64,000 nucleotides of DNA from the NCBI RefSeq assembly GCF_056712565.1, contig NZ_CM160072.1. One strand, given 5' to 3'. Shown one piece after another: positions 1,879 to 5,900 of this stretch; the first letter of the stretch is position 1; the number at the start of each line of letters is the position of its first letter. Made by a program: the position numbers and the translations under genes. The notes beneath the pieces are model-generated. The model saw nothing but the letters and a program-made list of their open reading frames with translations. It was not told the DNA's origin and searched no databases.

Positions 1879-2664
1879 TTAGCGCACTAAATAACCGCCA
1901 TCAACCACTAATAAATGTCCGTTGACATAATTCGATGCCGGACTTGCGAGGAATACGGCTGCGCCCATTAAATCCTGAGTATCGCCCCAACGGTTTGCCG
2001 GAATATAATCAAGAACGCGCTGGTTAGTTTCTGGATTACTACGGGTCGCCAGAGTGATATCGGTAGCGTAATATCCCGGGGAAATACCATTCACCTGAAT
2101 ATTATATTGACCTAATTCATCGCAATAGGCTTTGGTGAATCCGGCAAGAGCATGTTTAGTGGCAGAATAAGCCGGTGACCATTGACCACCTGAGTAAGAG
2201 AACAATGAACAGATATTAATGATTTTACCGCTTTTCTGCGGGATCATAATTTTTGCAGCTTCATAGCTTAACTCGAATGCGGCGGTAAGGTTCACGTCAA
2301 TCATCGGATCCCAGTCGGCACGCCCGAAGTCCAGCACCTTATTCAGCTTACATATACCGGCATTGTTAACCAGAATATCGACGGTACCGAAACGCTCACA
2401 GCAGGCAGCGATAATCTTCTGCGGTGCGCCTTCTGCGGTGATATCCACCTGCATGAAGTCCACTTCAACACCCTGTTTTTCAATCATTTCCTTTGTTTCG
2501 CCGTTATCTTTGACGAAACTTGGAATAAAGACATTTGCGCCAGCCTTGGCCAGCGCCATGGCAAATGCCTGGCCTAATCCGCTATTCCCGCCGGTAACAA
2601 TTGCTGTTTTACCTTTCAGGGAGAAAAAATCCATTGAGAACGCATTGAGAGATTCGATTGACAT
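1879..2664 (-). CDS. ygcW: short-chain dehydrogenase/reductase (KduD-like)
   Basis: TGxxxGxG Rossmann motif (TAIVTGGNSGLGQ) near the N-terminus. Start placed at ATG 2664 (MSIESLNAF...) with GGAG Shine-Dalgarno; the longer ORF to 2739 reads through an upstream hairpin and U-run and is rejected. Confidence 0.8.
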   Translation of the reverse strand: MSIESLNAFSMDFFSLKGKTAIVTGGNSGLGQAFAMALAKAGANVFIPSFVKDNGETKEMIEKQGVEVDFMQVDITAEGAPQKIIAACCERFGTVDILVNNAGICKLNKVLDFGRADWDPMIDVNLTAAFELSYEAAKIMIPQKSGKIINICSLFSYSGGQWSPAYSATKHALAGFTKAYCDELGQYNIQVNGISPGYYATDITLATRSNPETNQRVLDYIPANRWGDTQDLMGAAVFLASPASNYVNGHLLVVDGGYLVR

Positions 2665-2687
2665 AGTTAGCTCCAATTTCCGTAAGG

Positions 2688-2765
2688 CAAAAAAAAAGAA
2701 AGGTAACTTCCCCCGCGAGAGGGAAGTTACCTTTCTCATTATCTCTGGTAACTGGAGATAATTTT
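2688..2765. promoter_or_regulatory. two adjacent palindromes in the ygcW / yqcE divergent intergenic region (candidate operator or attenuator)
   Basis: Perfect 15-bp inverted repeat gaaaggtaacttccc / gggaagttacctttc (2698-2735) flanked by an A-run (2688-2697). Second 8-bp-arm palindrome attatctc...gagataat at 2740-2764. Confidence 0.4.
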
Positions 2766-2982
2766 TAGCATAAGGGCATAACTGCTAATGTGATCGTAAT
2801 CACAGAGTGATGTTCGTATTATCAAATAGTTTTAAAAAGCAGAAGCGTGATTACTCTCACACAACACCTTTTCTTTCCATGTTATTTCTTATTGCAATTA
2901 CTAGAGACCTGAGAAAAGTAATCCACCTGAAAGGGCGGCTTACTTTTCTCTTTTTTTTGTCTATTACAAATGGGAATACGAT

Positions 2983-4260
2983 ATGCAACACAACTCATAT
3001 CGCCGTTGGATAACCCTCGCGATAATTAGTTTTAGCGGCGGCGTTAGTTTCGACCTGGCTTATTTACGTTATATTTATCAAATTCCCATGGCAAAATTTA
3101 TGGGATTCAGCAATACCGAGATAGGTTTAATAATGAGTACCTTTGGTATTGCGGCCATTATTTTCTATGCCCCTAGCGGCGTTATTGCCGATAAATTTTC
3201 ACACCGCAAAATGATTACTTCCGCGATGATCATTACCGGATTACTGGGCCTGATAATGGCAACATATCCACCACTGTGGGTAATGCTCTGTATTCAGGTC
3301 GCCTTTGCGATAACGACGATTTTAATGCTGTGGTCGGTGTCGATTAAAGCCGCATCGTTGCTGGGCGATCATAGCGAGCAAGGGAAAATTATGGGCTGGA
3401 TGGAAGGGCTGCGCGGCGTCGGTGTAATGTCGCTGGCGGTGTTTACCATGTGGGTCTTTTCTCGCTTTGCACCGGATGACAGCGCCAGCCTGAAAACGGT
3501 CATTATTATCTATAGTGTGGTTTACATTCTGCTGGGCATTTTGTGTTGGTTTTTTGTTAGCGATAACAACAATCTGCGCAGTGCCAATAACGAAGAAAAA
3601 CAGTCATTCCAGCTTAGCGACATCCTGGCCGTTTTGCGCATCAGCACCACCTGGTATTGCAGCATGGTGATTTTTGGTGTCTTCACCATCTACGCCATTC
3701 TGAGTTACTCCACCAACTATCTGACCGAAATGTACGGCATGTCACTGGTGGCAGCGAGCTACATGGGGATTGTGATCAACAAAATCTTCCGCGCGTTATG
3801 CGGCCCACTTGGCGGCATTATCACCACCTACAGCAAAGTGAAATCCCCTACCCGCGTGGTCCAAATCCTTTCCATCATCGGTTTGCTGGCATTGACAGCC
3901 CTGCTCGTTACGAACTCTAACCCGCAATCGGTCGCGATGGGGATTGGCTTGATTTTATTACTGGGATTCACCTGTTACGCCTCACGCGGGCTGTATTGGG
4001 CCTGCCCTGGCGAAGCGAGAACACCGTCTTACATTATGGGCACCACGGTAGGTATTTGTTCGGTGATTGGATTCCTGCCGGATGTCTTCGTTTACCCGAT
4101 TATCGGCTACTGGCAAGACACCCTGCCCGCTGCAGAAGCCTACCGCAACATGTGGCTAATGGGCATGGCGGCGCTTGGCATGGTGATCATCTTTACCTTT
4201 TTGCTGTTCCAAAAAATTCGTACTGCTGATAGCGCCCCCGCAATGGCTAGCAGCAAGTAA
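2983..4260 (+). CDS. yqcE: MFS family transporter
   Basis: 425 aa, multiple hydrophobic helices; synteny with K-12. Confidence 0.85.
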   Translation: MQHNSYRRWITLAIISFSGGVSFDLAYLRYIYQIPMAKFMGFSNTEIGLIMSTFGIAAIIFYAPSGVIADKFSHRKMITSAMIITGLLGLIMATYPPLWVMLCIQVAFAITTILMLWSVSIKAASLLGDHSEQGKIMGWMEGLRGVGVMSLAVFTMWVFSRFAPDDSASLKTVIIIYSVVYILLGILCWFFVSDNNNLRSANNEEKQSFQLSDILAVLRISTTWYCSMVIFGVFTIYAILSYSTNYLTEMYGMSLVAASYMGIVINKIFRALCGPLGGIITTYSKVKSPTRVVQILSIIGLLALTALLVTNSNPQSVAMGIGLILLLGFTCYASRGLYWACPGEARTPSYIMGTTVGICSVIGFLPDVFVYPIIGYWQDTLPAAEAYRNMWLMGMAALGMVIIFTFLLFQKIRTADSAPAMASSK

Positions 4261-4286
4261 GCCAGGAAAATTACAGGAGAAAAATC

Positions 4287-5765
4287 ATGTCGAAAAAATA
4301 CATCATAGGGATTGATGGCGGAAGTCAGAGCACAAAAGTGGTGATGTACGATCTGGAAGGTAATGTGGTTTGCGAAGGCAAAGGCTTATTGCAGCCGATG
4401 CACACGCCAGATGCCGATACCGCAGAACATCCTGACGACGATTTATGGGCATCATTATGCTTTGCCGGCCACGATTTGATGAGCCAGTTTGCCGGGAATA
4501 AAGAAGATATTGTCGGCATTGGCCTGGGATCCATCCGTTGCTGCCGTGCGTTATTGAAAGCCGATGGCACGCCTGCTGCGCCGTTGATTAGCTGGCAGGA
4601 TGCACGCGTAACGCGTCCCTACGAACACACTAATCCTGACGTGGCATATGTCACCTCTTTTTCGGGTTATCTGACGCACCGTTTAACGGGCGAATTTAAA
4701 GATAATATCGCCAACTATTTTGGTCAGTGGCCGGTGGATTATAAGACCTGGGCATGGAGCGAAGATGCCGCGGTAATGGAAAAGTTTAATATCCCCCGCC
4801 AGATGCTTTTTGACGTGCAAATGCCGGGCACCATTCTTGGGCATATCACACCACAAGCTGCGCTGGCGACACATTTCCCGGCTGGGCTGCCGGTTGTTTG
4901 TACCACCAGTGATAAACCGGTAGAAGCTCTGGGAGCCGGGTTACTGGATGATGAAACGGCGGTAATTTCTCTTGGCACCTATATCGCGTTAATGATGAAC
5001 GGCAAAGCACTGCCGAAAGATCCGGTCGCGTACTGGCCGATTATGTCTTCTATTCCGCAAACATTGCTGTATGAAGGTTACGGTATTCGCAAAGGCATGT
5101 GGACGGTGAGCTGGCTGCGCGACATGTTAGGCGAGTCGTTAATTCAGGATGCCAAAGCACAGGATCTTTCACCGGAAGATTTGCTCAACAAAAAAGCGTC
5201 TTGCGTGCCACCTGGTTGTAATGGGCTGATGACGGTGCTGGACTGGCTGACCAATCCGTGGGAACCGTACAAACGCGGAATTATGATCGGCTTTGATTCC
5301 AGTATGGATTACGCATGGATATATCGTTCGATACTGGAAAGCGTGGCGCTGACGCTGAAGAATAATTACGACAATATGTGTCATGAAATGAATCACTTTG
5401 CAAAGCATGTGATCATTACTGGCGGCGGTTCGAACAGCGATCTGTTTATGCAGATTTTTGCCGACGTGTTCAACCTTCCGGCACGCCGTAACGCCATTAA
5501 CGGTTGTGCAAGTCTGGGGGCAGCGATTAATACGGCGGTAGGTCTGGGGCTATACCCGGATTACGCAACGGCTGTCGACAAAATGGTTCGCGTGAAAGAT
5601 ATCTTTATGCCTGTTGAGAACAATGCCAAACGCTACGACGCGATGAATAAAGGCATTTTCAAGGAGTTAACCAAACATACTGATGTAATCCTGAAAAAAT
5701 CGTATGAAGTGATGCATGGGGAATTGGGGAATGCGGATTCGATCCAGAGCTGGTCGAATGCGTAA
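4287..5765 (+). CDS. ygcE: FGGY-family carbohydrate kinase
   Basis: 492 aa; strong Shine-Dalgarno (aggag) upstream; synteny. Confidence 0.85.
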   Translation: MSKKYIIGIDGGSQSTKVVMYDLEGNVVCEGKGLLQPMHTPDADTAEHPDDDLWASLCFAGHDLMSQFAGNKEDIVGIGLGSIRCCRALLKADGTPAAPLISWQDARVTRPYEHTNPDVAYVTSFSGYLTHRLTGEFKDNIANYFGQWPVDYKTWAWSEDAAVMEKFNIPRQMLFDVQMPGTILGHITPQAALATHFPAGLPVVCTTSDKPVEALGAGLLDDETAVISLGTYIALMMNGKALPKDPVAYWPIMSSIPQTLLYEGYGIRKGMWTVSWLRDMLGESLIQDAKAQDLSPEDLLNKKASCVPPGCNGLMTVLDWLTNPWEPYKRGIMIGFDSSMDYAWIYRSILESVALTLKNNYDNMCHEMNHFAKHVIITGGGSNSDLFMQIFADVFNLPARRNAINGCASLGAAINTAVGLGLYPDYATAVDKMVRVKDIFMPVENNAKRYDAMNKGIFKELTKHTDVILKKSYEVMHGELGNADSIQSWSNA

Positions 5766-5810: not shown

Positions 5811-5900
5811 ATGGTTATCCCCGCTGACGCGGGGAACTCATATCCGGTTTTTGCTGGTGGGCCGCGCCGTTCGGTTTATCCCCGCTGGTGCGGGGAACTC
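5811..5900 (-). CRISPR. vestigial type I-E CRISPR array: two repeats and one 32-nt spacer
   Basis: Repeat 5872-5900 cggtttatccccgctggtgcggggaactc has one mismatch to the E. coli I-E repeat (reverse complement of GAGTTCCCCGCGCCAGCGGGGATAAACCG). Degenerate repeat at 5811-5839. Spacer 5840-5871 is 32 nt. Confidence 0.8.

Follow-up and report, generated by a model that had tools for sequence, protein, structure and literature searches.

In Bacillus subtilis, GlpP together with glycerol-3-phosphate suppresses terminators in the 5' untranslated regions (UTRs) of glpD, glpFK and glpTQ (PMC9604022, PMC10573289), and a glpP deletion abolishes expression driven by the glpD promoter and leader (PMC9604022). 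The glpD 5' UTR (Table S4, PMC9604022) reads ...ACGGUCC-UGAGA-UGAG-GAGAGACCACAGC..., and then runs into a 27-bp terminator with a U-rich tract; in its core, GGUCC-UGAGA-UGAG-GAGAGACC, a box (GGUC), a GAG..GAG segment and a complementary GACC that opens the 5' arm of the terminator follow one another in that order. In our folding, the 5' part of this leader formed a small hairpin (-6.1 kcal/mol) and the whole leader formed the terminator (-40 kcal/mol). Here we describe a seemingly comparable arrangement in the 318-nucleotide (nt) intergenic spacer between the divergent genes ygcW and yqcE, within a 64,000-nt stretch of Escherichia coli DNA (contig NZ_CM160072.1, 100% identical to ATCC 11775; hereafter the window, of which position x corresponds to position x + 2,897,609 of NC_000913.3), where a strong hairpin followed by a U-run precedes ygcW and has a mirror-image twin in front of yqcE. 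We argue that the ygcW leader is probably a protein-dependent transcription attenuator, in which a CRP-activated promoter is combined with antitermination that depends on YgcP, a relative of GlpP.

The ygc locus and the GlpP system are alike in their PF04309 regulator and in a strong intrinsic terminator that lies in the 5' UTR just before the first catabolic gene. The layout of the leaders also looks alike when the single glpD sequence is compared by eye, each terminator 5' arm opening with the complement of a short stretch further 5' and GAG..GAG lying between the two. Both systems include an FGGY kinase that could make a phosphorylated inducer (GlpK there, YgcE here), and in both a global catabolite regulator acts on top (CcpA there, CRP here). 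They differ in the genes concerned, which in B. subtilis are glpFK, glpD and glpTQ and here encode a short-chain dehydrogenase/reductase (SDR), a flavin adenine dinucleotide (FAD)-linked oxidase, an electron-transfer flavoprotein (ETF), a major facilitator superfamily (MFS) transporter and an FGGY kinase without an assigned substrate. They also differ in the box and arm (GUUAC/GUAAC here, GGUC/GACC there) and in their setting, the ygc host being Gram-negative, with CRP class II promoters, a mirror-image divergent pair of leaders and a role for YgcP that we infer. The BglG/SacY/LicT systems, known in E. coli from the bgl operon, follow the logic proposed for the ygc leaders: a weak 5' hairpin, in their case the ribonucleic antiterminator (RAT), overlaps the 5' arm of a leader terminator and is stabilised by a sugar-responsive RNA-binding protein. 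That protein is of the CAT-PRD type, whereas the candidate ygc regulator belongs to the TIM-barrel-like GlpP family and has no PRD domains controlled by the phosphotransferase system; no CAT-PRD gene is annotated in the ygc island, and neither a RAT consensus nor a RAT-like Rfam match was found in 2300-3300.

The terminator in the ygcW leader

A repeat search of the spacer returned perfect 16-nt inverted arms (2697-2712 and 2721-2736, with 8 nt between them), and a terminator scan of the minus strand grew the stem to 19 pairs with a 4-nt loop (2737 to 2696), followed by TTTTTTTGCC. The resulting hairpin (2696-2737, minus strand), supported by covariation and by a covariance-model match of 79.8 bits, leads into a U9 tract (2688-2696, minus strand) evident both in the sequence and in the terminator scan, and 23 nt separate this T9 run (2696-2688) from the ygcW ATG at 2664. 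The original prediction, made from the letters of the window, had described a perfect 15-bp stem with a 9-nt U-run about 25 nt from the ygcW start; the perfect repeat and the U-run both stand, but the arms are 16 nt long and extend to 19 bp as a minus-strand stem. Of 2000 dinucleotide-shuffled versions of the spacer, none contained a perfect 16-nt inverted repeat, and the window has no longer one than that observed here. Folding of the leader RNA, proposed earlier as a check together with mapping of the start sites and a genome-wide motif search, gave -34.2 kcal/mol for the 70-nt ygcW leader (z = -6.35). A scan of 2300-3300 against Rfam 15 (E ≤ 10) yielded best matches with E of at least 0.064, far under the gathering scores and all from implausible families.

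Published transcriptome data supply the start sites. Romero et al. 2014 (PMC4681348) report a class I start cluster for ygcW, RVS_(I) 2898384-2898388 in U00096.2, which corresponds to window 2753-2757 on the minus strand, and a class I start for yqcE, FWD_(I) 2898527-2898528, which corresponds to window 2896-2897 on the plus strand; coordinates were carried from U00096.2 to U00096.3 with an offset of +1978, taken from the yqcE start, and then to the window by subtracting 2897609. So mapped, the hairpin falls at about +17 to +66 of the ygcW transcript, and the terminator stands between the transcription start (2753-2757) and the first start codon (2664), as attenuators require. The same catalogue lists as candidate small RNAs (sRNAs) ecr2774, a 73-nt RNA reaching from window 2757 to 2684 on the minus strand, with its 3' boundary just beyond the U9 tract, and ecr2775, a 63-nt RNA reaching from window 2896 to 2959 on the plus strand (PMC4681348).

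Term-seq data for cells grown in lysogeny broth (LB) to an optical density (OD) of 0.4 (Adams et al. 2021, PMC7815308; supplementary files 1 and 3) place a 3' end at 2900311(-), 38 nt 5' of ygcW, with 40,640 reads, a Rho score of 0.50 ('No') and an intrinsic score of 15.8, and another at 2900556(+), 36 nt 5' of yqcE, with 1,557 reads, a Rho score of 0.61 ('No') and an intrinsic score of 11.4. The former, the dominant 3' end on the minus strand, is at window 2702 (K-12 2900311), inside the 3' arm. Transcripts of LB-grown K-12 end at the ygcW hairpin by intrinsic, Rho-independent termination, leaving an RNA of about 50-73 nt, and the hairpin with its U-run is a real intrinsic terminator in the ygcW 5' leader. 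The earlier reading of the hairpin as an intrinsic terminator placed, attenuator-like, in a leader is supported by the start sites, the 73-nt RNA and the Rho-independent 3' end, to which the compensatory changes described below can be added. ecr2774 and ecr2775 on the one hand and the 'orphan' 5'-UTR ends on the other are the same molecules, namely the terminated ygcW and yqcE leaders. The two studies (Romero 2014, Adams 2021) give them as catalogue entries alone, with no mechanism, conservation, paralogy or link to YgcP, and neither leader has an entry in the column for characterised regulatory elements.

A conserved alternative helix and a mirror-image twin

The extreme 5' end of the ygcW transcript carries a box, AGUUACC (2747-2753, minus strand), which is complementary to part of the terminator 5' arm and is a candidate antiterminator strand. 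Its complement, the anti-box GGUAACU (2725-2731, minus strand), lies inside the 5' arm and has either the box or the 3' arm as its partner. Between box and anti-box runs a purine-rich loop, AGAGA-UAAU-GAGAAA (2732-2746, minus strand), a candidate protein contact in which GAG...GAGAAA is near-invariant in both of our alignments: A2, a MAFFT alignment of 76 copies, and A4, a model-based alignment of 87 leaders, with 85 distinct rows used for the box:arm counts. The nascent ygcW RNA (+1 to +34) folds into a 7-bp box:anti-box hairpin with a 15-nt purine-rich loop (-6.7 kcal/mol).

Both helices show compensatory changes. Across the 87 leaders of A4 the terminator helix is paired in 87.7% of cells, with changes on both sides at 10 of its 19 pairs, and A2 is similar; the upper stem is free to vary while it pairs (UUCCC/GGGAA, CCACC/GGCGG, UUCUCUGC/GCAGGGGAG and others), and G.U pairs are frequent (47 UG at one position, 20-22 GU at another), which argues for strand-specific pairing at the level of RNA and not for a DNA operator. 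The box:anti-box helix is paired in 93.8% of cells, its six core pairs being kept in 81-85 of the 85 rows, with compensatory exchanges of GC<->AU in 22 rows and of UA<->CG in 20, and changes on both sides at three pairs; as a control, slid registers of box and arm pair in just 15-54%. Position C34 of the arm finds its partner in the box in 84/85 rows and in the 3' arm in ~29/85 rows of the same alignment, so that the alternative helix, or a protein contact, accounts better than the terminator for the invariance of GUAAC. Other complementary versions of box and anti-box occur, including GUUGC/GCGAC in Listeria and in one enterobacterial metagenome-assembled genome (MAG, L030), GUUUC/GAAAC in Faecalibacterium and AUUACU/AGUAAU in Sporomusa. 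Taken together, the alignments point to a conserved alternative helix that uses part of the terminator 5' arm, as attenuators do.

The yqcE leader module (2894-2958, plus strand), with a covariance-model match of 70.9 bits, coincides with ecr2775 and with Term-seq end 2900556(+). It comprises, on the plus strand, a box AUUACU (2897-2902), AGAGA (2903-2907), an anti-box AGUAAU (2917-2922) and a terminator with arms at 2911-2927 and 2934-2950 and a U8 tract at 2951-2958, 24 nt 5' of the yqcE ATG. Aligned as RNAs, the two leaders share a common 5' end, CA[G/A]UUAC[C/U]AGAGA, a common start of the 5' arm, UGAGAAA[G/A]GUAA, and a common 3' arm, UUAC[C/U]UUUCU, followed by the U-run. The G->A difference in the yqcE 5' arm is paired with C->U in both the 3' arm and the 5' box, a matched change that identifies the box as complementary to the start of the terminator 5' arm in each leader (AGUUACC:GGUAACU for ygcW, AUUACU:AGUAAU for yqcE). 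Judged by this alignment, the ygcW and yqcE leaders are paralogous promoter-leader-terminator modules in mirror orientation; a search of the fronts of ygcN, ygcS and ygcP for further copies of the motif found none. The original prediction had mentioned neither this mirror-image twin nor the alternative (antiterminator) helix, nor YgcP as the likely trans factor.

Two variants of the spacer were seen outside Escherichia. A repeat of about 130 nt resembling the enterobacterial repetitive intergenic consensus (ERIC) (...AAGTGATTCGGGTGAGTGAACGCAGCCAACGCATCAGCAACTTGAAGTATGAAGGGTATA...) has inserted 3' of the yqcE leader terminator, ahead of the yqcE start codon, in Citrobacter youngae (locus L011:16320-16470) and Klebsiella spallanzanii (locus L012), with the leader motif intact. 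The ygcW-yqcE spacer of Limnobaculum eriocheiris (locus L033:13889-13948) is about 130 nt long and holds a single hairpin between A9 and T9, without either box or promoter, as if both terminators had fused into one bidirectional hairpin.

Association with YgcP and a proposed antitermination mechanism

YgcP matches PF04309 (G3P_antiterm) over its full length (E = 1.4e-62), and its closest solved structures are the GlpP-type 3KTS and 1VKF. Annotated as a 'putative anti-terminator regulatory protein', ygcP is the one regulator that the annotation of the ygcN-ygcE island contains; in K-12, 5.5 kb separate it from the leaders. Throughout 64 genome loci gathered by a YgcP search, ygcP is always linked to ygcU/ygcW/yqcE/ygcE homologues in shuffled gene order, with an Escherichia-type arrangement, a Serratia/Pantoea type and, in Listeria, a single co-directional operon. 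The motif precedes both ygcW and yqcE in almost every Enterobacterales locus and is conserved 5' of ygcW/yqcE homologues in about 60 loci from Enterobacterales, Vibrio, Listeria, Bacillus, Clostridia and Sporomusa; a PF04309 gene (ygcP in E. coli) is present in nearly all of these within the sequence examined, and in all taxa the element ends 20-60 nt 5' of the start codon of the first operon gene.

Covariance model R1, built from the 76 copies of A2, was searched against 1.26 Mb including the window. In every Enterobacterales locus that reaches ygcW and yqcE, strong full-length matches (56-80 bits) occurred 5' of those two genes and nowhere else, the window itself containing only 2688-2755(-) and 2894-2958(+), and weaker true matches were found in Thalassobacillus, Bacillus sp. 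DNRA2, Listeria and two Clostridia MAGs. Distant YgcP homologues in Vibrio hannami, Clostridium sediminicola and Sporomusa each sit in a cluster of SDR, FAD-oxidase, ETF, FGGY and transporter genes with two motif copies, and the motif is also found in a gut Firmicute. The box of the Firmicutes follows 6-8 nt after a TTGACA-17-TATACT promoter of sigma-A type, which puts it at the extreme 5' end of the transcript, as in E. coli. When metagenomes were scanned starting from the motif, 12 matches were obtained, of which ten are genuine (hairpin plus T-run) and stand, all ten, beside ygc homologues, seven of them with ygcP in the stretch examined; the remaining two are chance matches inside an open reading frame (ORF), without hairpin or T-run.

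Under the mechanism that we propose, the terminator (about -34 kcal/mol) would win by default and the operons would remain off even when CRP with cyclic AMP (cAMP) fires the promoters; without inducer the far more stable terminator would form and only short leader RNAs would accumulate, matching the LB data. With inducer present, YgcP would bind the emerging box:anti-box hairpin and its GAG-rich loop, the inducer probably being a phosphorylated compound made by the FGGY kinase YgcE, much as GlpK makes the glycerol-3-phosphate that acts with GlpP. Binding of YgcP would hold the terminator 5' arm in the alternative helix and so permit readthrough into ygcW-ygcU(-ygcSRQ) and yqcE-ygcE. The outcome would be a two-key control, in which CRP sets initiation according to the catabolite state and antitermination responds to the substrate.

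Several points weigh against this mechanism. YgcP binding, the ligand and readthrough are steps that we infer, and literature searches on ygcP, ecr2774/ecr2775, PF04309 and ygcE/ygcU/ygcS/ygcQ returned nothing on mechanism or substrate and no link between YgcP and the leaders. The likeness to glpD was judged by eye against one reference leader, whose primary sequence differs. Since the 64 loci were gathered via YgcP, co-occurrence among them is partly by construction, and the reciprocal, motif-first metagenome scan was small, with three of its ten genuine matches on stretches too short to judge. The exchanges in the box:anti-box helix are inherited within clades and spread over few lineages, so that they amount by our estimate to only ~4-6 independent events, and the antiterminator helix of yqcE taken alone is weak (-1.4 kcal/mol, no better than shuffles). 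The northern probe for ecr2775, as given in the text-extracted supplement, had no match to this locus, for which reason we set the northern blot aside and relied on the sequencing data. Finally, the dominant 3' ends, at window 2702 and 2947, fall within the 3' arms and not in the U tracts. These ends, 2702(-) and 2947(+), lie in the A/U-rich lower stem, 6-10 nt short of the end of the U-tract, and are probably trimmed termination products; exonucleolytic trimming or a specific processing step could have produced them.

Other readings of the same element have to be set beside YgcP-dependent attenuation. It is unlikely that ecr2774 and ecr2775 are stand-alone, trans-acting sRNAs and that the downstream genes rely on separate promoters or leaky readthrough, with no regulated antitermination. 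Their listing as candidate sRNAs, the abundance of the ygcW-side 3' end in LB (40,640 Term-seq reads) and the hairpin with U-run, which is the usual 3' module of an sRNA, would all suit such a role, but in every taxon the element holds its place 20-60 nt before the start codon of an operon, and in different phyla it is accompanied by one and the same gene cluster and by a gene of the GlpP family; moreover, the table of Romero et al. reports no further start site between element and ATG, and a conserved alternative helix overlapping the terminator arm is the hallmark of a switch acting in cis. The terminated leaders may nonetheless have a trans role besides their cis role. A sensor made of RNA only, whose 5' hairpin and purine loop would bind the inducer directly and flip between terminator and antiterminator without YgcP, is improbable, as is its fuller version, in which a very small metabolite-sensing RNA would found a new riboswitch-like class for an ETF-linked catabolic cluster, with YgcP dispensable or accessory and the leaders also serving as trans-acting RNAs. 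The sensing part would measure merely ~30 nt with a stem of 5-7 bp, an RNA-binding antiterminator family is encoded alongside in all informative loci, and the homologous glpD arrangement of B. subtilis needs GlpP in vivo (PMC9604022); on the other side stand the strongly conserved unpaired GAG...GAGAAA, the mutually exclusive helices and the lack of a matching Rfam family, which makes a new class formally possible.

Two further accounts had been raised at the outset and do not survive the comparison. The view of both palindromes as operators, through which a dimeric transcription factor would control ygcW and yqcE, has in its favour their perfect dyad symmetry between diverging promoters and the binding of H-NS and CRP to this spacer. 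However, the large palindrome is downstream of the start site, its stem is kept paired through G.U pairs that exist on the transcribed strand only and would not pair in DNA or on the opposite strand, strand specificity is likewise seen in the U-run and the 5' box, the upper stem varies freely while pairing, and the 8-bp palindrome is unconserved; the real CRP sites are elsewhere (2789-2804, and a predicted one at 2846-2861), and no DNA-binding regulator is annotated in the island (RefSeq), all of which makes operators very unlikely. The notion of a dispersed repeat of the repetitive extragenic palindrome (REP), bacterial interspersed mosaic element (BIME) or ERIC type, or of a chance palindrome without dedicated function, can draw on the commonness of palindromic extragenic sequences in E. 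coli and on the ERIC-like insertion beside the yqcE leader in two species, yet it is scarcely credible. The genome-wide search found the element in 5,061 of 5,426 E. coli genomes, at a single locus in each, a second 'place' per genome probably being the palindrome matching itself on the other strand, only two copies exist in the window and island, and none of the 2000 shuffles gave a 16-nt repeat.

The two RNAs, with their 3' ends, stood in published catalogues before this work, and antitermination of the GlpP type is a familiar mechanism. The apparent novelty lies in the recognition of two 'orphan' RNAs as paired conditional leader terminators, in a conserved motif with an antiterminator helix that is absent from Rfam 15, and in the tight association of this motif with a YgcP-like protein across Proteobacteria and Firmicutes. 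The ten-gene island ygcNOPQRSUW-yqcE-ygcE of K-12, with no known substrate or regulation, gains a testable regulatory model; should it hold, it would extend GlpP-type antitermination to a Gram-negative model organism for the first time. Genes controlled by YgcP-like proteins would be recognisable by the motif, which would also supply a sequence and structure consensus for the GlpP family, on whose RNA target there has been little comparative work, and readthrough of the leader would serve as a reporter in screens for the inducer and substrate of the pathway.

Promoters, the small palindrome and the surrounding island

A near-perfect CRP site, TGTGATCGTAATCACA (2789-2804, centre 2796.5), lies at -41.5 from the start at 2755, in class II geometry. 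PhyloScan also lists it as a predicted CRP target, in vitro binding of CRP has a dissociation constant (Kd) of 1.7 nM by Footprint-seq (PMC12871828), and a CRP peak from chromatin immunoprecipitation (ChIP) is found at this spacer in enterotoxigenic E. coli (ETEC; PMC4287617); site geometry and published binding mark the ygcW promoter as class II-type and CRP-bound. Reading of the sequence yields a probable extended -10 element, TGcTAAAAA (2762-2770, minus strand; TG at 2770-2769, hexamer at 2767-2762), whose spacing fits the mapped starts, and TGnTAxxxx recurs at equal distance from the box in other Enterobacterales. On the yqcE side a second CRP-like site, CGTGATTACTCTCACA (2846-2861, centre 2853.5), is predicted 42.5 bp from the yqcE start, and RpoD holoenzyme and H-NS bind the spacer in published genomic SELEX (systematic evolution of ligands by exponential enrichment).

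A second palindrome with 8-bp arms had been noted beside the large hairpin in the original prediction. It is present, as ATTATCTC(9)GAGATAAT at 2738-2745 and 2755-2762 in the repeat search, but it is not conserved as a palindrome, stands at chance level (an inverted repeat of at least 8 nt arose in 6.7% of spacer shuffles) and straddles the start site. Its 3' half is the conserved leader AGAGA with spacer, and its 5' half is the unconserved stretch from the -10 element to the start site, where the arm varies without compensation even inside Escherichia (ATTATTCC, ATTATCCC). With transcription starting at 2753-2757, the 5' arm (2755-2762) is at or upstream of +1, so that no RNA hairpin results. 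The palindrome was therefore rejected as an RNA hairpin, an anti-antiterminator or an operator, its 5' arm being both at or upstream of +1 and unconserved. A plus-strand sigma-70-like sequence, TTCTCA-18-GATAAT (window 2733-2762), overlaps it and is listed by Shimada et al. as a predicted yqcE promoter; the table of Romero et al. reports no plus-strand start at 2733-2762, the mapped yqcE start being at 2896-2897.

The first gene 3' of the leader is ygcW (1879-2664, minus strand), which encodes an SDR-family oxidoreductase of 261 aa and is followed by ygcU; its Shine-Dalgarno sequence, GGAG (2671-2674, minus strand), as read from the window, lies 6 nt 5' of the ATG at 2664. We considered and rejected an N-terminally extended ygcW, or a leader peptide, starting from ATG 2739, which opens the longest ORF and runs in frame through the hairpin. 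The annotated 261-aa ygcW begins at 2664 and not at 2739, ATG 2739 is unconserved (AAG, CTG or CAG stands there in many leaders) and is missing from the yqcE twin, and a good Shine-Dalgarno sequence precedes ATG 2664. The 'YgcW' of a paper on PdhR is a slip for YbcW. On the plus strand, 3' of the twin leader, the operon of yqcE (MFS transporter) and ygcE (FGGY-family kinase) spans 2983-5765.

The island ygcNOP / ygcQRSUW / yqcE-ygcE sits between the queuosine genes queD and queE (NC_000913 2892657-2903374). Genes for a GlpP-like protein, an SDR, an FAD oxidase, ETF, an FGGY protein and a transporter form a core that is found again in Vibrio, Listeria, Clostridium and Sporomusa, and this recurrence suggests a horizontally mobile catabolic module, to which no substrate is assigned. 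About 6% of complete E. coli genomes are without the spacer; in E. coli PK8277 (NZ_CP080133.1) just a 40-nt remnant of it persists (window 2830-2869; query 231-270), where no gene is annotated, a pattern suggestive of loss of the island by deletion. Between ygcE and queE, at window 5813-5900, we observed a remnant array of clustered regularly interspaced short palindromic repeats (CRISPR) with two type I-E-like repeats, one of which (5872-5900) matches GAGTTCCCCGCACCAGCGGGGATAAACCG with 2 mismatches and the other of which (5813-5840) is degenerate, with one spacer between them. The remnant is flanked by an AT-rich, leader-like stretch reaching to about 6230, and the same site in K-12 holds a longer array with abundant Term-seq 3' ends.

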